From Solirubrobacterales bacterium (GTDB lineage Bacteria; Actinomycetota; Thermoleophilia; Solirubrobacterales; 70-9), in the NCBI GenBank assembly GCA_036381235.1, contig DASVDE010000014.1:35306-99305 (forward strand): a stretch of 64,000 nucleotides of DNA. Reading direction: 5' to 3'. The position numbers and the translations under genes are program-made. Of the stretch, positions 26,842 to 60,958 are shown in pieces (the stretch's first letter is position 1; every line of letters begins with the position of its first letter). Under the pieces are notes generated by a model that was not told the DNA's origin, ran no database searches, and saw nothing but the letters and a program-made list of their open reading frames with translations.

Positions 26842-27273
26842 TTATTCGTCGGCCGCGTCGAACGCGCCGCCGACCGCCGCGGCGGACGAGCGCCAGATGC
26901 CTGGAGCCTCTTCCTCGCGCCCTTCGACATGGAGCTGGGCGCTTCGCGCGATCAGCTCCGCGAGTTCAGCGAGCGCCGCCATGTCGCCGAGCGCGGCGAG
27001 GCGCTCGATGCCGAGCGCATAGAGATAGTCGCCGGCCAGAAGCGCGAGGTCGGAGTCGTGACCGGCGAGCAAGCGCGACTCTCCGTAGTGAAGGAGATAG
27101 CCCTCGCGGACCGACTCGACGACCAGGGAGTAGTCCTCCGGGGCAGCCGCCGCGCGCGGACCGGCGGCGGCGATAGGGCCGAACTCCAGCTCATCGGGAG
27201 ATGGGCCAACATGAGGCGAGATCGGCGTTCCCTCCTCGCGCAGCTGGGTGGCCAGAGTCTCGAGCGCGTTCAC
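26842..27273 (-). CDS. Hypothetical protein, translationally coupled to hemL (possible HepS-like small subunit)
   Basis: 143 aa. The GTG at 27273 overlaps the hemL TGA as GTGA. The motif DLALLAGDYLYALGIERLA resembles the LAGDYFSGLYY motif of the Bacillus heptaprenyl diphosphate synthase component I. The similarity is short, so the assignment is weak. Confidence 0.4.
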   Translation of the reverse strand: MNALETLATQLREEGTPISPHVGPSPDELEFGPIAAAGPRAAAAPEDYSLVVESVREGYLLHYGESRLLAGHDSDLALLAGDYLYALGIERLAALGDMAALAELAELIARSAQLHVEGREEEAPGIWRSSAAAVGGAFDAADE

Positions 27274-28547
27274 GCGAAAGCCTCGTTGAGAGCCTCGGCG
27301 GCGGCTTCAAGGGTACGGTCGATCGCGGCCTCGTCGTGGGCGAGGGAGGGGAACCACGCTTCGAACTGCGAGGGGGGCGGGTAGACCCCGCGCTCGAGCA
27401 GGGCGCGGCAGAAGGCGGCGTGAGCCTCAGTGTCGCAAGCCGAGGCTCCAGCGAAGTCGTGAACCGGCACCTCGCTGAAGAAGAGGGTGAACAGGCCGGG
27501 GACCGAGGCAACCTGGAGCGGGCGGTCCCGGACCAACTCCGAAAAGCCCGCCGTAAGCCGATCGGTGAGCTCTCCCAGCCGTCGGTAGGCATCGCCATCG
27601 AGGCGGCGCAGCGTGACGAGACCGGCAGCGACCGCGACGGGGCTGCCGGAGAGGGTCCCCGCCTGGTAGACGTCGCCAACAGGGGAGATCCGCTCCATCA
27701 GATCGCGGCGGCCGGCGAAGGCAGCCGCCGGGAGGCCGCCCCCCAGCACCTTGCCGAGCACGGTGAGGTCGGGCTCGACCCCGTAGAGCTGCTGAGCGCC
27801 GCCGCGGGAGAGGCGGAAGCCGGTGATCACCTCGTCGAAGACGAGAAGGGCGCCGGCGGCCGTGGTGGCGTCGCGAAGGAACTCAAGGAAGCCGGGCTCA
27901 GGCGGGACGATCCCCATGTTGGCTGCGACCGGCTCGGCGATCAGGGCGGCGACCGGATGGTCGAGCAGGGCGCGGCGCACCGCGTCGCGGTCGTTCCAAG
28001 GAACGACGACGGTGGTGGCAGTCTGGCCGGCGGTGACACCGGGGCTGGCCGGTATCGCGAGTGTCGCGAGGCCGGAGCCGGCGTCTGCCAGCAGCCCATC
28101 GGAATGGCCGTGGTAGGCGCCGGCGAACTTGACGACGACCTCGCGGTCGGTTGCAGCGCGGGCGAGGCGGATGGCGCTCATCGCCGCTTCGGTTCCGGAG
28201 CTGGTCATCCGCGCCATCTCAACCGAGGGGACGCGGGCGACAACCTCTTCGGCCAGCTCGACCTCGTCCTCGGTCGGGGCGCCGAAGCTCGAACCGCGAG
28301 CGGCGGCCCCGGCGGCGGCGGCAACCACCTCGGGGTCGGCGTGGCCGAGGATCAGCGGCCCCCATGAGCCGACCCAGTCGATGTACCGATTGCCGTCGAC
28401 GTCGACGAGCTCGCAGCCCTCGCCGCGCTCGATGAAGACCGGATCGCGGCCGATCTGGCGCATCGCGCGGACGGGGCTGTTCACACCCCCCGGCAGTACT
28501 TTCAGCGCACGGCGGTAGAGCTCACCGGAGCGCTCGTAGCTAGGAAT
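27270..28547 (-). CDS. hemL: Glutamate-1-semialdehyde 2,1-aminomutase
   Basis: It has ...YERSGELYRRALKVLPGGVNSPVRAM..., GSWGPLILGHADP, and a class-III aminotransferase body. No ATG/GTG/TTG lies at the expected N-terminus. The start is placed at ATT 28547 (GGGAGG plus a 6-nt spacer); the alternative is CTG 28565 (GAGGA plus a 5-nt spacer). The 574-aa ORF in the track is an artefactual extension across ahbAB. Confidence 0.85.
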   Translation of the reverse strand: MPSYERSGELYRRALKVLPGGVNSPVRAMRQIGRDPVFIERGEGCELVDVDGNRYIDWVGSWGPLILGHADPEVVAAAAGAAARGSSFGAPTEDEVELAEEVVARVPSVEMARMTSSGTEAAMSAIRLARAATDREVVVKFAGAYHGHSDGLLADAGSGLATLAIPASPGVTAGQTATTVVVPWNDRDAVRRALLDHPVAALIAEPVAANMGIVPPEPGFLEFLRDATTAAGALLVFDEVITGFRLSRGGAQQLYGVEPDLTVLGKVLGGGLPAAAFAGRRDLMERISPVGDVYQAGTLSGSPVAVAAGLVTLRRLDGDAYRRLGELTDRLTAGFSELVRDRPLQVASVPGLFTLFFSEVPVHDFAGASACDTEAHAAFCRALLERGVYPPPSQFEAWFPSLAHDEAAIDRTLEAAAEALNEAFA

Positions 28548-54964: not shown

Positions 54965-56005
54965 CTACAGCTGGAAGTCGACGGTGTAGCTGGCCTTGTT
55001 GTTGCTGGAGACCTGCTCGCCGGGGACCGGTTGCACGTCCACGTCGAGGGTCACCTGCCCCGTCGGGGCTGGAGTCAGCGGGATCGTGACGGTCTGTGTC
55101 TCCCCGGGGCCGATGGTGCTGATGTCCTGTTCCAGGGCGTTGCCGTTGACGCTTACAGTCACGGTGACGCCGTTCTCGGTCGAGTCGCCCTGGTTCTGAA
55201 CCTGGGCCTCGACCTCGGGGGTGTCTCCCGCCGCCACGGTCGTGAGGGAGTCGGCGGTCAGCGGCGTGCCGTTGACGCTTACCCCGATCAGGCCCATTCC
55301 GTGGATGCCCGGCGTCGCCGCGCCGGTGGCGCCGCTCACCGAACCGAGCGCGGCGCTGACCGTGGTCGCGTCGAGCCACCTGGTCTCATCGGGGAGAAAG
55401 ACGCTCGTCGGCACGTCGCTGCCCTCGATGCCGTTGTCGGCGAGCACCCCGTCGATCTCCGGCCGCACCACCTCGGCGTAGAGGACGTCGCTCGTCAGCA
55501 GCTTCCGCATCTGGTTGGCGATTGCGACCATCGCCTTCTCAGACCCGACGTCGCCGAGCGCGGTGCTCATTCTGTTGGCGATCGTCGTCATCGCACTGCT
55601 GCGCAGCTCGTAGGTCAGCTCGAGGACGGCCTGCGCGTGACTCATGTCCCCGGGGGCGTCGAGGCCGTCGACCCGCGTCGCGTAGTTGTCCATCGCGCTG
55701 CGGTCGGCGTTCACCTGGTCGACGAAGTCGGTGACCGAGAGGCTGCCCGGATCGTCGAGCTTCCCAAAGAACGATTCGCTGGTCTGCTGGGTCTCGTCGA
55801 CGATCTGGGAGACGTTGCCGGCGTAATCGGTCAGCGCCCGGTCCTTACGGGCGTTGAGGCAGCCTTTGACACCGAGCACGAGCAGGATCAGCACCAACAG
55901 GCCAGCGCCCAGCGCCAGGCCGCGCCGCAGCAGGATCTGCTGGCGCTCGGGACGACGGGGTGGGCGTGGCCGGCGGACCGGGCGCGCTGCTGACGATTCC
56001 TCCAA
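54965..56005 (-). CDS. Membrane-anchored protein with a C-terminal CARDB/Ig-like beta domain, unknown function
   Basis: It has an Arg/Pro-rich cytoplasmic N-terminus, one TM helix (GLALGAGLLVLILLVLGV), a helical ectodomain, and then VEAQVQNQGDSTENGVTVTVSVNG...IGPGETQTVTIPL. The preferred start is TTG 56005 (AGAGG plus a 5-nt spacer); GTG 56047 is the alternative. Confidence 0.5.
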   Translation of the reverse strand: MEESSAARPVRRPRPPRRPERQQILLRRGLALGAGLLVLILLVLGVKGCLNARKDRALTDYAGNVSQIVDETQQTSESFFGKLDDPGSLSVTDFVDQVNADRSAMDNYATRVDGLDAPGDMSHAQAVLELTYELRSSAMTTIANRMSTALGDVGSEKAMVAIANQMRKLLTSDVLYAEVVRPEIDGVLADNGIEGSDVPTSVFLPDETRWLDATTVSAALGSVSGATGAATPGIHGMGLIGVSVNGTPLTADSLTTVAAGDTPEVEAQVQNQGDSTENGVTVTVSVNGNALEQDISTIGPGETQTVTIPLTPAPTGQVTLDVDVQPVPGEQVSSNNKASYTVDFQL

Positions 56006-56096
56006 GACTGCCTCTCTGAAGCCTTTGACTGGGCGGGAAGTATGCACGGTGGCGGGGTCGAGTCGCAAAGAACCGCAGCAAAGGTTGCTTTTTTGC

Positions 56097-57053
56097 GTGG
56101 CAGGAGCCCATCGCGCCACGTCGAAGCCGGTTTGTGCTTTGGTCGGCTCTTTGGTCCTCAACCGCTTCCTGATCGAGCGCCGAATCGGCAGCGGCGGCTT
56201 CGGCGTCGTCTACGAGGCCTGGGATGGGAGGCTGGAGCGCCCAGTCGCGGTGAAGGCGATCGAGTCGCGCGGCCCGGCCCGGCGACGGGTGCTGCGCGAG
56301 GCGCAGGCCGCGGCGCGCCTCAACCACCCCGGCATCGTCACCCTCTACGAGATGGGCGAGGAGGAGGGCAACGCGCTGCTTGTCACGGAGATGGTGGACG
56401 GTTCAACCCTGGCGGAATTGAGCGCCGAAGGCTCGCTCAGCGATCGCGAGATAGGGGAGATAGGCGCCGATCTCTGCGAGGCGCTCGACCATGCCCACTC
56501 CCGCTCGGTCGTACACCGCGACATCAAGCCGCAGAACGTCCTCGTCACCGAGGCCGAGTCGCGCGCCAAGCTGATGGACTTCGGCGTCGCCCGCCTTACC
56601 GACGCCGCGGCGCTGACCGCTCCCGGCGACGTGGTCGGCACCCTCGCCTACATGTCGCCCGAGCAAGCCGAAGGGCACTCGGCCGGGCCCGAGGCCGATG
56701 TCTACTCGCTGGCGTTGATGCTCTATGAGTGCTGGAGCGGTGAGAATCCGAATCGCCGGGCGACGCCGGCGGCGACGGCGCGGGCGATCGGCGCCCGTCA
56801 CCGGCCGTTGCGAAGGGTGCGGCCGGACCTGCCACCGGACCTGACCGCCACGATCGACAGCTGCCTCGCCCCTCGACCCAGTCACCGTCCGGGGCTTGAG
56901 GAACTGGGAACGGCGATCGAGGAGGCCCTCGAACGACTTGACGAACATCCGCGCGAGACAGCGCGACCGCTGGGCATGAGGCTCACGGCGCTGGCGACCG
57001 CGGCAGCACTCGGCGCTTGGCTGGCGATCGGCCACGGAGCCCTGCTGCCGTAG
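56097..57053 (+). CDS. Ser/Thr protein kinase, short, C-terminally tail-anchored
   Basis: It has IGSGGFGVVYEA, VAVK, HRDIKPQNVL, DFGVA and YMSPEQ, and a terminal hydrophobic segment LTALATAAALGAWLAIG. The start is ambiguous: GTG 56097, TTG 56139 or TTG 56151. Confidence 0.8.
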   Translation: MAGAHRATSKPVCALVGSLVLNRFLIERRIGSGGFGVVYEAWDGRLERPVAVKAIESRGPARRRVLREAQAAARLNHPGIVTLYEMGEEEGNALLVTEMVDGSTLAELSAEGSLSDREIGEIGADLCEALDHAHSRSVVHRDIKPQNVLVTEAESRAKLMDFGVARLTDAAALTAPGDVVGTLAYMSPEQAEGHSAGPEADVYSLALMLYECWSGENPNRRATPAATARAIGARHRPLRRVRPDLPPDLTATIDSCLAPRPSHRPGLEELGTAIEEALERLDEHPRETARPLGMRLTALATAAALGAWLAIGHGALLP

Positions 57054-57062
57054 GATTTCTGC

Positions 57063-57090
57063 GGGTTTCCACCGATGGGAAACCCTTTTT
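57063..57090 (+). terminator. Intrinsic terminator downstream of the kinase gene
   Basis: GGGTTTCC-accgatg-GGAAACCC followed by TTTTT. It begins 10 nt after the kinase stop. Confidence 0.7.
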
Positions 57091-57111
57091 CCATCCCAAA
57101 GGAGCCCCCCG

Positions 57112-57888
57112 ATCGGCGTTTTCAGCAACCTCGAAGCTCGGATCGAAGGCCTCGTCGAGGGTGTCTTCAGTCGTGCCTTCAGCTCTGAGGTGCAGCCGGT
57201 CGAGCTGGCCCGGAAGCTGGCCAAGGAGATGGATGCGCACAAGACCGCCTCCGTAGCCCGCGTCTATGTGCCGAACGAGTACACGGTGTTCCTCTCGACC
57301 AGGGACCGCTCGAAGTTGGAGGGTTATGAGCGTTCTCTGGAACAGGAGCTGTCCGGGTATCTGCTCGAGCATGCGCGCAGACGCAGCTACGACCTGCTGA
57401 CCCGCCCGGCCGTCGAGTTCAAGACCGACGAGCGACTGCGCCTGGGGGAGTTCGGGATCCAGACGCGGTTGGTGAAGCCGCCGGTCCACGAGGGGGAGCG
57501 GCCGCGCCAGGGCGAGGAGGGCCACACGATGGTCTACTCGGCCGTTCGCGAGCGCGACTCCGACCGACCAAAGCGCCCCGAGCAGGCAGTCGGGGCGCTT
57601 GTCTCCACCCGCGCTGTCGTCACCCTCGACGATCGTCGCTACGTCTTGGAGGGCCCGCGGGCCACGATCGGCCGCTCGAAGGATGCGGAGTGCGTGTTGC
57701 GCGATCCGAACGTGAGCCGCCGCCACGCCGAGCTGCGACGCGGGGCCAACGGCGACTGGACGATCGCCGACCTCGGCTCCACCAACGGGGTGAAGGTGAA
57801 CGGCCGGCGGGTGGCCTCGACGCGGCTCAGCCCCGGCGATGAGGTGACTGTCGGGACCACGACCTTCAGGTTCGACATCGAGTCATGA
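57112..57888 (+). CDS. fhaA: FhaA-like protein (DUF3662 N-domain plus C-terminal FHA domain), apparent ATC initiation codon
   Basis: The FHA domain is IGRS.....VL.D..VSRRHAEL.......I.DLGSTNGV.VNG. The conserved N-terminal segment (I/M)GVFSNLEARIEGLVEGVFSRAFSSEVQPVELA lies upstream of the first GTG (57190). AAAGGAG at 57098-57104 with a 7-nt spacer precedes ATC 57112. Confidence 0.8.
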   Translation: MGVFSNLEARIEGLVEGVFSRAFSSEVQPVELARKLAKEMDAHKTASVARVYVPNEYTVFLSTRDRSKLEGYERSLEQELSGYLLEHARRRSYDLLTRPAVEFKTDERLRLGEFGIQTRLVKPPVHEGERPRQGEEGHTMVYSAVRERDSDRPKRPEQAVGALVSTRAVVTLDDRRYVLEGPRATIGRSKDAECVLRDPNVSRRHAELRRGANGDWTIADLGSTNGVKVNGRRVASTRLSPGDEVTVGTTTFRFDIES

Positions 57889-57974: not shown

Positions 57975-58445
57975 GTGGACTACGACCCCATTTCAGTGGC
58001 TCTCAAGTTCGGCTTCCTGGCCGTCCTCTACCTGTTCCTGCTCTTCATCGCCCGCAGCGCGCTGAAGGACCTGCGCCGGACCGTCACCCCCGCCCCCGAT
58101 GCGACCGGCTTCCACCCGACGCCGGCATTCGGCGCCGGGTCGGGCGACGGCGATTCCTGGTTGATCGCCGAGCGCGGCGGCGGCCTGCAGCCCGGCGAGC
58201 GGTTCGATCTGATCGGTGGCCTCTCGATCGGGCGCTCCGGCGAGTCCGACGTGCGGATCGACGATCGCTACGCCTCCGGTCTGCACGCGAGGATCTTCGC
58301 CCGTGAGGGGCGCACCTACATCGAGGATATGAACTCCACCAACGGCACCCTGCTCAACGACGCCGAGCTGAAGGGGGAGGCGGAGCTGATCGACGGCGAC
58401 GTGGTGAGGATCGGCGACACCGAGTTCAGGTTCGAGGTGGGCTAG
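57975..58445 (+). CDS. fhaB: FhaB/FipA-like membrane-anchored FHA-domain protein
   Basis: 156 aa with an N-terminal TM helix (ALKFGFLAVLYLFLLFIA) and a C-terminal FHA domain (IGRS..SDV.IDD.Y.S..HA.I......Y.ED..STNGT.LN). Confidence 0.85.
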   Translation: MDYDPISVALKFGFLAVLYLFLLFIARSALKDLRRTVTPAPDATGFHPTPAFGAGSGDGDSWLIAERGGGLQPGERFDLIGGLSIGRSGESDVRIDDRYASGLHARIFAREGRTYIEDMNSTNGTLLNDAELKGEAELIDGDVVRIGDTEFRFEVG

Positions 58446-59624
58446 ATGCTGCGCGTCGACGACCAGGCCTTTCAGACCGACACCGGCCGCCAGCGGAATG
58501 CCAACGAGGACTCTTACTTCGCGCGCTCTCCGATCTTCGTCGTCGCCGATGGGATGGGGGGCGCGCAGGCAGGTGAGGTCGCTTCGAAGACAGCGGCCGA
58601 GGCGTTCGACCGCGACCTGCCGGCCGGCTCGCCGGAGCGCACCCTGCGGGAGACGATCGAGGCGGCAAACAGGCAGATCAACGAGCGCGCCCATTCCGAT
58701 CCTTCGCTGGCCGGGATGGGGACGACGATCACAGCGGCGATCGTCGACGCGCAGGGCGAAGAGGTTGCGATCGGCCACGTCGGCGACAGCCGCGCCTACC
58801 GCCTGCGCGGCGGGAAGCTGGAGCGCCTGACGCGCGATCACTCGCTGGTCGAGGAGATGAGGCGCAAGGGCCAGCTGACCGATGCCCAGGCCGAAGATCA
58901 TCCGCAGCGCTCGATCATCACGCGGGCCTTGGGCCCCGAGCCCGAGGTCGACGTCGACGTGCAGACGGTTCCGGCGTCGCCAGGCGATGTCTTCCTGCTG
59001 TGCTCGGACGGGCTGACCACGATGATCGCCGATGACCGGATCGGCCGCATGCTCGCCGGTGCCACCTCGATGCAGGCGGCGGTGCGAGCGCTGATCGACG
59101 AGGCAAACCGCGCCGGAGGCCGCGACAACATCACGGCGCTCGCCTTTCGGCTGGAGGACTCCGAGGCACCGGCGCGGGCGCCGGAGGGGGCGACGCTGAT
59201 CGGGGACTCCGCCGAGGAGGCGGGACTGACCGCGACCGAGGTCCGCCGCCGCGCCGCCGCCGAAGCCGCACGCAAGCGGCGGGAGGAACAGGCAGCGAAA
59301 CCGACTCGGCGGGGATTGAAGCGCGCGGCGAAGGCACTCGCCGCGCTGGCTGTCCTGGCGGCCATCGCCTTCGGCGCTTGGTACGGCAACCGCCAGATCT
59401 GGTTCCTGGGCACCGACGAAGGCGGCCGGGTGGCGCTCTACCGCGGTCTGCCCTATGAGCTTCCCTTCGGCGCAAAGCTCTACAGCGAGCGTTACGCAAG
59501 CCCGATCCAGACGAATTCCCTGCCTCCTAAGCGACGCGATTCGGTCACCGGTCACGACCTGCGCTCCCGCAGTGACGCTGTCTCGCTGATCGAGGACATC
59601 CAGACGAGTCAGGGAGTTCCTTGA
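58446..59624 (+). CDS. pstP: PP2C-family Ser/Thr phosphatase (PstP-like) with a C-terminal TM segment
   Basis: 392 aa with NEDS, VADGMGG, GDSR.Y, LCSDGL and DNIT, then a TM helix ALAALAVLAAIAFGAWY and an extracytoplasmic tail. Confidence 0.9.
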   Translation: MLRVDDQAFQTDTGRQRNANEDSYFARSPIFVVADGMGGAQAGEVASKTAAEAFDRDLPAGSPERTLRETIEAANRQINERAHSDPSLAGMGTTITAAIVDAQGEEVAIGHVGDSRAYRLRGGKLERLTRDHSLVEEMRRKGQLTDAQAEDHPQRSIITRALGPEPEVDVDVQTVPASPGDVFLLCSDGLTTMIADDRIGRMLAGATSMQAAVRALIDEANRAGGRDNITALAFRLEDSEAPARAPEGATLIGDSAEEAGLTATEVRRRAAAEAARKRREEQAAKPTRRGLKRAAKALAALAVLAAIAFGAWYGNRQIWFLGTDEGGRVALYRGLPYELPFGAKLYSERYASPIQTNSLPPKRRDSVTGHDLRSRSDAVSLIEDIQTSQGVP

Positions 59625-60958
59625 GGTCAGCGGCGCGCAACCGGGAGCTGGTCGCACTGGTTCCCGTCGCCCTGCTCCTCACCGCCGGCTTCGCCGCGGT
59701 CTTCGCGCAGGAGAGCACGCGGCTGGACAACCTCAGCCTGATCTACGGCGCTTACTTCCTGGCGATCTGCCTCGCCGCCCACATCTACCTGCGGATGCGG
59801 CTTCCCGACGCCGATCCTTACCTCTTCCCGCTGGTCGCGCTGCTGACCGCCTTCGGGCTGGTGATGGTCTACCGGATCGACGCCGACCTGGCCCGCGATC
59901 AGGCCAACTGGTTCGTGCTGGGTCTAGTCCTCTTTGCCCTGACGATCCACTTCCTGCGCGATTACGACGTTCTGGAGCGCTACCGGTACACGATCGCCGC
60001 AGTCGGCATCCTGCTGCTGCTGGCGCCGCGACTGCCGGGGATCGGCCAGCAGGTCAACGGCGCCTTTCTGGGGGTAAAGATCGGCCCGTTGCAGTTCCAG
60101 CCGGCCGAGTTCGCGAAGATCTGCCTGGTCGTATTCCTCGCCAGCTACCTGCGCGAGCACCGCGAGGTCCTGATCGTCGGCGCGCGGCGTGTGCTCGGTG
60201 TGACGCTGCCGCCGCTCAAGCACTTCGGCCCGATGCTGGTCGTCTGGGGCGCATCGATGTTCATGCTCGTCTTCATCCGCGACCTCGGCAGCTCGCTGAT
60301 GTTCTACGCGGCATTCCTGGCGCTGCTCTACGTGGCGACAGGGCGCTTTTCTTTCGTCGCGATCGGGATGGCGATGTTCCTGCTCGGCGCCTGGTTCTTT
60401 GCCTCGACCGTCCCGCATGTACACGACCGGGTCGAGATCTGGCTCGATCCCTATCGGGACCCGGCCAACACCGGGTACCAGATCCTCAACTCGATCTTCG
60501 CCCAGGCCGATGGCGGATTGTTCGGCCAGGGCTTCGGTCAAGCGCTGATCACGATTCCCGGCACCGACCGGGCGCTGTTGCCGGCGGCGCAGACCGACAC
60601 GATCTACTCGCTGATCGTCAACGAGCTGGGCCTGTTCGGAGGCTGCGCCGTCGTCCTCATCTACCTACTGATCGCCGCGCGGGGCTTCAAGATCGCGCTG
60701 CTCGCCGACGACGGCTTCTCGAAGCTGTTGGCCACCGGGCTGACCGCCGTATTCGCGATTCAGGCCTTCGTCATCATCGGCGGGGTGACCCGGGTGATCC
60801 CGCTCACCGGCGTCACGCTTCCGTTCATCAGCTACGGCGGCAGCTCGATCGTCGCCAACTTCGTGCTGCTGGCGTTGCTGCTCCTGATCTCCGACCGGGC
60901 GCGGCGTGAGGCCGAAGCCCCTGTACCGGGCACCGTTGCCGCTCTGGGGGAGTCGTGA
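59621..60958 (+). CDS. rodA: SEDS-family peptidoglycan polymerase (RodA/FtsW)
   Basis: 445 aa. The TTG start overlaps the pstP stop. It has 10 TM helices, QPAEFAKI, and GVTLPFISYGGSS. Confidence 0.9.
   Translation: MRSAARNRELVALVPVALLLTAGFAAVFAQESTRLDNLSLIYGAYFLAICLAAHIYLRMRLPDADPYLFPLVALLTAFGLVMVYRIDADLARDQANWFVLGLVLFALTIHFLRDYDVLERYRYTIAAVGILLLLAPRLPGIGQQVNGAFLGVKIGPLQFQPAEFAKICLVVFLASYLREHREVLIVGARRVLGVTLPPLKHFGPMLVVWGASMFMLVFIRDLGSSLMFYAAFLALLYVATGRFSFVAIGMAMFLLGAWFFASTVPHVHDRVEIWLDPYRDPANTGYQILNSIFAQADGGLFGQGFGQALITIPGTDRALLPAAQTDTIYSLIVNELGLFGGCAVVLIYLLIAARGFKIALLADDGFSKLLATGLTAVFAIQAFVIIGGVTRVIPLTGVTLPFISYGGSSIVANFVLLALLLLISDRARREAEAPVPGTVAALGES

Follow-up and report, generated by a model that had tools for sequence, protein, structure and literature searches.

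Comparative sequence evidence for a conserved AUC start codon of fhaA in a family of Solirubrobacterales

Conserved near-cognate start codons are textbook rarities. In Escherichia coli and many other bacteria infC, the gene for initiation factor 3 (IF3), has a conserved AUU start behind a normal ribosome-binding site; the initiator tRNA decodes this codon, IF3 disfavours it, and the output is low and IF3-dependent. Within E. coli the confirmed examples are, to our knowledge, limited to infC and pcnB. The AUU of pcnB, the gene for poly(A) polymerase, is a weak start that limits the amount of a protein harmful in excess. AUC behind a Shine-Dalgarno sequence initiates at a low level in reporter constructs: in E. 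coli at 1-2% of the AUG value, with an N-terminal Met identified by mass spectrometry (bioRxiv 10.1101/063800), and in Mycobacterium smegmatis, where ATC was the intended negative control, with a low activity above background (PMC4633059). Here we examine fhaA in a 64,000-nucleotide stretch of DNA from a Solirubrobacterales bacterium (the window; assembly GCA_036381235.1, contig DASVDE010000014.1, positions 35,306 to 99,305, forward strand), for which we propose the mechanism of the reporters, low initiation at AUC with an N-terminal Met, in this instance at the natural and conserved start of a core gene rather than in an artificial construct.

The gene is known from Mycobacterium, where it (Rv0020c) is part of the operon fhaA-fhaB-pstP-rodA-pbpA-pknB. 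The window contains the same combination of an FhaA_N (DUF3662) and an FHA domain in one protein and the same gene order. It differs from the mycobacterial system in that the protein is short (258 aa) and without the long linker, in that an additional kinase gene lies 5' of fhaA, and in that the start is ATC, whereas the sister families of the order use ATG, GTG or TTG.

Translation of fhaA very probably begins at ATC 57112. The first 26 codons from this ATC read IGVFSNLEARIEGLVEGVFSRAFSSE and run on into VQPVELARKLAKEMD. No ATG, GTG or TTG is found in the 25 codons that follow the ATC, the first canonical codon of the frame in the open-reading-frame listing being GTG 57190, and a scan of the 44 open codons that precede the ATC in the same frame revealed none either. 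A spacer of 7 nt, CCCCCCG, separates the ATC from the Shine-Dalgarno sequence AAAGGAG. The genome is a 2.1-Mb soil metagenome bin with roughly 1,860 genes, and in a coding-score scan of the whole bin the onset of the fhaA frame coincides with the ATC. The protein read from the ATC matches the Pfam family FhaA_N (PF12401) with E = 4.5e-35, profile positions 1-114 of 115 falling on residues 4-116, which is well beyond chance; residues 6-117 align with the N-domain structure of FhaA from M. tuberculosis (2lc0). Were GTG 57190 the start, the first 23 positions of the FhaA_N profile would be lost. A preliminary description of this DNA, made from the sequence alone, had given the same positions for the ATC, the AAAGGAG 7 nt in front of it and the first canonical GTG, all of them correctly.

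The preliminary description had also claimed that the ATC aligns with the initiator Met of homologues and that the 26 codons in front of the GTG are conserved as protein. Both claims are borne out by the comparison of the 5' ends of fhaA in relatives, a check that it had itself proposed and that favours the ATC start. The comparison set comprised 110 fhaA loci, 108 of them distinct, 99 from the same Solirubrobacterales family, each from a species-level genome, and nine from sister families of the order. The family loci have, at the codon aligned with residue 1, ATC (85), ATA (4), ATT (3), ATG (4), GTG (2) or TTG (1), and the sister-family loci ATG (7), GTG (1) or TTG (1); the pooled figures are ATC 85, ATA 4, ATT 3, ATG 11, GTG 3 and TTG 2. 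ATC, ATA or ATT (collectively AUH) is therefore present in 92 of the 99 family genomes, with a canonical codon in the other seven, and ATC is found in 16 of the 19 genera of the family that were sampled. A codon outside the set of start codons, such as CTN or GTC, never occupies the residue-1 position in the 108 loci; the internal Ile11 codon, by contrast, varies to TTC, CTG and TTG. An in-frame stop lies two codons 5' of the ATC in L007 and L015 and four codons 5' in L014 and about 34 other loci, so that no upstream start is possible at those loci. The variation of the sequence changes at the same point. In the 99 family loci the column entropy of codons 2-26 is 0.36, 0.19 and 0.84 at codon positions 1, 2 and 3, with the variation concentrated in the third position; in the eight triplets 5' of the ATC it is flat at 1.55 and has no period. 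The coding-type variation from codon 2 onwards and its absence 5' of the ATC argue that translation begins at codon 1. Residues E8, E16, G17, F19, R21 and F23 are invariant across the order. Codon 27 is GTG in 85 of the 99 family loci and GTC, GTT or GTA in the other 14, and the downstream GTG is therefore not a conserved start. In one genome, G020, fhaA (contig C1:1837230-1837988, minus strand) matches in three pieces in different frames; this copy is probably frameshifted or misassembled.

The history of the codon was followed on a maximum-likelihood tree calculated from fhaA coding DNA with codon 1 left out. On this tree ATC arises once, on the stem branch of the family (SH-aLRT 99), and gives way to canonical codons again five times, four times to ATG and once, in a single clade, to GTG/TTG. 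Among the AUH codons, one clade shifted to ATA and three changes led to ATT. Every path observed for codon 1 remains among codons able to initiate. Judged by this pattern of sequences, the shared ATC is a real inherited feature.

Two layouts precede the start. The leadered layout has an AAGGAG-type ribosome-binding site with a spacer of 5-9 nt and is found in 56 AUH-start loci, including the window; a TAG[GC]AT box lies 45-85 nt upstream in 48 of 59 leadered loci. The leader is missing in the compact layout, which comprises 35 ATC loci (L002 and loci in the range L033-L109) with the arrangement TAGGAT-N6-ATC in 34 and N7 in one. In 11 compact loci the TAG of TAGGAT is the stop codon of the upstream kinase gene, located in the fhaA frame four codons 5' of the ATC. 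The three relatives that start with GTG or TTG (L072, L079, L090) have a spacing of N7-N8 after TAGGAT instead. The tree indicates about nine switches between the leadered and the compact layout, with the ATC kept each time; in L002, which belongs to the same genus as the window, an independent deletion again yields N6. Of the four family members that start with ATG, three (L013, L018, L021) lack a recognisable ribosome-binding site, as do most sister-family loci. Where the start is weak the site is thus strong, and where the start is strong the site is weak or missing, a pattern that resembles compensation by which the output stays within limits.

We give a probability of about 0.82 to the reading that the ATC start of fhaA originated once at the base of the family and keeps FhaA output low, with part compensation by the strong ribosome-binding site. 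The 30S subunit would be placed by AAAGGAG 7 nt 5' of the ATC, and the initiator tRNA would read AUC as a near-cognate start with a mismatch at the third base. The protein would then begin with fMet-Gly-Val-Phe and contain the whole FhaA_N domain. According to this scheme a single replacement of ATG by ATC would have occurred at the root of the family, and most descendants would then have kept the new codon. Poor initiation at AUC would hold FhaA low relative to the rest of the fhaA-fhaB-pstP-rodA-pbpA-pknB operon, an effect that the strong ribosome-binding site would offset in part. FhaA synthesis would probably be sensitive to the level of IF3, to nutrient limitation and to guanosine tetraphosphate (ppGpp), as are other non-AUG starts; nutrient limitation and ppGpp hit non-AUG mRNAs hardest (PMC5499595). 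Comparison among the relatives shows where the start lies, how old it is and that it is paired with a strong site; from there we infer decoding as fMet, low output and any regulation. A weak AUC start implies that FhaA may be low relative to the products of the co-transcribed genes and possibly tied to growth state. The proposal in the preliminary description that the codon sets a low or regulated FhaA level finds indirect support because the ATC is paired with a strong AAGGAG and the ATG-start relatives are mostly without one. The decoding machinery looks normal, since the initiator tRNA gene is ordinary and has its three G-C pairs, and an odd initiator tRNA was not found; the 16S rRNA gene, sought for positions 1338/1339, is not in the bin.

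The resemblance to infC lies in the conserved AUH codon behind a ribosome-binding site. It ends where IF3 comes in: fhaA does not encode IF3 and has no closed feedback loop, its codon is AUC and not AUU, and infC itself has a GTG start in this genome. With pcnB the common element would be a weak start on a gene whose product is harmful in excess, as FhaA is in mycobacteria: overexpression of FhaA in M. smegmatis results in a thicker envelope, shorter cells and mislocalised peptidoglycan synthesis (PMC11898655). The gene and the codon differ from those of pcnB, and the low output of fhaA is the presumed part of the likeness. fhaA displays three features of the near-cognate class, namely the lack of a canonical start for its conserved N-terminus, conservation of AUH, and a ribosome-binding site at a working distance. 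It is a conserved addition to this class that is present in one annotation pipeline and undescribed in the literature found. In this whole family of abundant soil actinobacteria a core cell-envelope regulator has retained an AUH codon, mostly AUC, and clpX keeps CUG. The family offers a natural case for asking why dosage-sensitive regulators retain weak starts, and one in which the strength of the start codon and that of the ribosome-binding site trade off over evolution.

Several observations weigh against this reading. At codon 1 the ATC is conserved no better than the Ile11 codon (85 of 99 each), which leaves only its persistence and the ribosome-binding site paired with it as arguments that ATC is selected over ATG. 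The preference for GTG at Val27 leaves room for a minor shorter isoform. In the AlphaFold model residues 1-24 are helical with a predicted confidence score (pLDDT) of about 40; with values below 50 the model is unusable as evidence for the start, and a helix predicted with such low confidence gives no proof that the N-terminus is indispensable. The GTG start of infC gives no sign of an IF3-centred circuit; an infC with an AUH start was sought and not found, both copies in the bin having GTG. The lineage is uncultured, and no RNA run was found to contain the stretch.

Of the competing explanations, neutral compensated substitution is a serious rival, although we consider it clearly the less likely. 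In this explanation the ATC start is real but is no regulatory device: drift fixed a change from ATG to ATC in the ancestor of the family, a stronger ribosome-binding site removed its harm, and the codon simply persists; only the expression level would matter, and sensitivity to IF3 or ppGpp would not. Drift would lead one to expect a codon 1 conserved only as well as any Ile codon, and likewise the return of five lineages to ATG, GTG or TTG without visible harm. The ATG-start relatives without a Shine-Dalgarno sequence suggest that total strength may be the conserved quantity, and the other near-cognate starts of this genome with the same ATC codon (glyoxalase, lipoprotein) are singletons absent in relatives. 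Drift does not readily account for the persistence of AUH in 92 of 99 species and 16 of 19 genera when a single C-to-G change would restore ATG, nor for the CTG of clpX, kept in 14 of 23 genera, an indication that dosage-sensitive regulators hold on to weak starts. Initiation at GTG 57190, with the preceding 78 bases as an untranslated leader and a 232-aa protein as in Prodigal-type annotation, is very improbable. It would use the first canonical codon of the frame, GTG at Val27 is more frequent in the family than codon usage predicts, and 232-aa products are recorded in ENA, Logan and JGI. Codons 2-26, however, encode the most conserved part of the protein with variation in the third position, they fall within the FhaA_N profile, 14 relatives have GTC, GTT or GTA at codon 27, and a ribosome-binding site at a usable distance 5' of the GTG is missing. 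Neighbouring Val codons strongly prefer GTC, and the frequent GTG at Val27 may either be a relic or point to a minor internal start.

We attach even less weight to the possibility that FhaA is made by ribosomes coming from the kinase gene, through stop read-through or re-initiation, instead of by independent binding at AAAGGAG. The kinase gene always lies directly 5' of fhaA, and in 11 relatives its TAG is in frame only four codons before the ATC. Arguing against this possibility in the window is the distance of the kinase stop, 61 nt 5' of the ATC with 58 nt between them, its different frame, and the hairpin and T-run in between; across the relatives its distance ranges from 12 to 228 nt and it falls in all three frames, and the upstream DNA has no coding pattern. 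An upstream in-frame start or a fusion to the kinase was rejected because of stops two to four codons 5' of the ATC in many loci, kinase stops in all three frames and the lack of a coding pattern. Least probable, to the point of being negligible, is a miscalled or misassembled ATG. What could invite such a suspicion is the nature of the genome, a metagenome bin in which contamination is 4% and infC occurs twice, but the codon is the same in about 90 independent assemblies from short-read and long-read projects, the source run has a depth of 33.7 (word depth) with no other letter at 57114, and a 151-nt contig from an independent soil run, X2, has the same ATC. An error was rejected on the strength of these assemblies and of the independent run, and the earlier claim of a genuine non-canonical start holds. 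The X2 contig differs only in having one C fewer, five instead of six at 57105-57110; the spacer length thus varies between close strains.

The TAG[GC]AT box is the sole conserved island 5' of fhaA across the order, the surrounding upstream DNA varying freely. It is kept as TAGCAT in sister families without the upstream kinase gene, and it is also kept where the kinase stop lies elsewhere. A TANNNT motif peaks 12-15 nt before 305 of the 1,744 predicted starts of this genome, at -12 before 94 of them, and about a sixth of the genes look leaderless or near-leaderless. The preferred form of this -10 box is TAGNNT, with G at position 3 in 180 of the 305; among the -10 hexamers of leaderless-type starts TAGGAT ranks third in frequency. 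In the window TAGGAT is the probable -10 box of the fhaA operon, which would place the transcript start near 57063. Its distance of 55 nt from the ATC gives the gene a leader that contains a ribosome-binding site, and the geometry is not that of a leaderless gene. The statement in the preliminary description that AAAGGAG directly follows the terminator of the upstream gene calls for a refinement: the hairpin and the TTTTT are there, and as they also lie just 3' of TAGGAT they may be a 5' stem-loop of the fhaA mRNA. In the minimum-energy fold of 57063-57107 the 5' GGGUUUC pairs with GGAGCCC of the ribosome-binding site, an alternative to the hairpin, and several relatives can pair a 5' GGUUUCC or GCUC with their GGAGC. 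The stability of the 5' leader was not above that of shuffled sequences (median z-score -0.34 over 54 loci), and we therefore make no structural claim. A mobile repeat as the source of the hairpin was discarded; a second copy was not found in the genome.

It is conceivable, though in our estimation rather unlikely, that the 35 compact relatives translate a leaderless mRNA that starts with 5'-AUC. This reading supposes that TAGGAT is the promoter in these loci, as it has to be where it lies 45-85 nt upstream; TAGGAT-N6 is the spacing that marks leaderless genes in this genome. Leaderless initiation in mycobacteria works only with 5' AUG or GUG (PMC4633059), and the only known setting for AUH starts at the 5' terminus is that of mammalian mitochondria, which initiate leaderless mRNAs at AUA and AUU (PMC11775629). 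If leaderless, the TAGGAT-N6-ATC relatives would be analogous to the latter, in a different translation system and with the exclusion of the window, which has a leader; they would then be an exception to the rule, so far valid in the bacteria tested, that leaderless mRNAs require a 5' AUG or GUG. In an alternative reading FhaA of the compact loci is made from kinase read-through transcripts, with AGGA in TAGGAT as the ribosome-binding site. Two other genes of this genome, encoding a glyoxalase and a lipoprotein, have an ATC at the expected start, 7 and 6 nt after TANNNT, respectively, and no ribosome-binding site. As candidates for a second conserved leaderless AUC they were rejected, being singletons of this genome with ATG or GTG in relatives; their ATC codons may be recent changes that reflect lost expression, error, or tolerated weak starts.

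Near-cognate starts elsewhere in the genome are few. The coding-score scan revealed 29 genes, fhaA included, with a coding signal at least eight codons before the first canonical start, and in seven further genes, namely those for clpX, pth, an SDR, an FHA/zinc-ribbon protein, a NadB-like oxidase, maf and the glyoxalase, a Pfam domain begins before any canonical start. The candidate start codons are listed in Table 1; for maf the start is uncertain and CTG is a candidate. thrS was a false positive for an ATC start, having an ATG two codons upstream. clpX (L111) has no canonical start before its zinc-finger domain; a CTG lies 12 codons before CSFCGK, behind AAGGAGG. Of 23 family genera, 14 have CTG at the aligned position, 6 GTG, 2 TTG and 1 ATG; of seven sister-family loci, six have ATG and one has GTG. 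By its sequence conservation clpX is the second conserved near-cognate start. hemL, within the window, probably starts at ATT, which follows GGGAGG after 6 nt and overlaps the stop codon of the upstream gene. Five genomes from three genera have this ATT context; CTG, ATG, GTG or TTG is found nearby in other relatives, and the N-terminus is variable. About ten genes, or about 0.5%, seem to need near-cognate starts. ATC, ATT, ATA and CTG codons near the onset of coding showed no genome-wide enrichment, either of ribosome-binding sites (4.9-6.5%, ATA 2.3%, against 6.1% for background codons) or of -10 boxes (1.8% against 1.6%). The near-cognate starts are therefore exceptions and not a relaxed rule, and pervasive AUH or CUG starts in this genome are rejected. 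The suggestion in the preliminary description that the organism tolerates such starts is supported by the ten or so genes, and by clpX in particular, but does not extend to the genome as a whole. The two infC copies are closely similar and apparently both GTG-started, an indication that the bin contains two related strains or is partly contaminated.

Table 1. Features around fhaA (window coordinates) and other genes of the bin referred to in the text (contig:position)
Feature	Position	Strand	Basis or candidate start
Ser/Thr protein kinase, open frame (true start not fixed)	55854..57053	+	Pfam Pkinase, E 1.8e-50
TAGGAT, probable -10 box of the fhaA operon, overlapping the kinase stop TAG (57051-57053)	57051..57056	+	conserved island; genome hexamer ranking
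Hairpin GGGTTTCC...GGGAAACCC (stem-loop 57063-57085), then TTTTT; kinase terminator and/or 5'-terminal stem-loop of fhaA mRNA	57063..57090	+	terminator scan
Shine-Dalgarno AAAGGAG	57098..57104	+	read from sequence
ATC, proposed fhaA initiation codon (read as fMet)	57112..57114	+	alignment with relatives; coding-score onset exactly there
fhaA coding sequence, 258 aa + stop, FhaA_N and C-terminal FHA	57112..57888	+	Pfam; NCBI product
Codons 2-26, conserved N-terminal helix, 5' of the first canonical start	57115..57189	+	column entropy; invariant residues
GTG (Val27), first canonical in-frame codon, start in Prodigal-type calls	57190..57192	+	open-reading-frame listing; database products
fhaB	57975-58445	+	Pfam FHA
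pstP (PP2C)	58446-59624	+	Pfam PP2C_2
rodA/ftsW	59621-60958	+	Pfam FTSW_RODA_SPOVE
hemL	27273-28547	-	probable start ATT, region 28545-28547
clpX	C22:42996-44195	-	CTG or ATT
pth, SDR, FHA/zinc-ribbon protein, NadB-like oxidase, maf (positions listed jointly)	C16:49598, C21:23151 (-), C25:5326 (-), C22:166319, C22:37785 (-)		pth, CTG after GGGGAG; SDR, ATC after GAGAGGAGG; FHA/zinc-ribbon protein, ATT after GGAAGGAG; NadB-like oxidase, ATA; maf, uncertain (CTG a candidate)
Glyoxalase	C4:97475-97849	+	ATC
Lipoprotein	C8:3576-4352	+	ATC
infC, first copy	C11:22622-23110	-	GTG
infC, second copy	C2:3094-3588	-	GTG

The remainder of the protein and the neighbourhood of the gene agree with its identification as fhaA. 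The FHA domain (PF00498) occupies residues 185-248 (E 1.2e-20) and matches the structures of GarA and of the FHA domain of Rv0020c. The protein thus has the FhaA_N domain and the C-terminal FHA domain typical of FhaA, and its gene is at the head of the fhaB-pstP-rodA-pbpA-pknB cluster; the downstream genes are the usual actinobacterial operon. Two more long frames follow rodA/ftsW. A Ser/Thr kinase gene is situated 5' of fhaA at every family locus.

A literature search found no paper on an AUC start for fhaA. The databases differ in the start they assign. The NCBI annotation of this contig has exactly the 258-aa product started at the ATC, and the NCBI product of a congener, HWO15198.1 ('DUF3662 and FHA domain-containing protein'), is likewise the 258-aa form. 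The forms of other lengths in ENA, Logan and JGI are mostly truncated (211-241 aa), and a few are extended upstream (264-290 aa). In these genomes Prodigal-type pipelines thus trim off the 17-26 best-conserved residues of FhaA, whereas the NCBI pipeline retains them.

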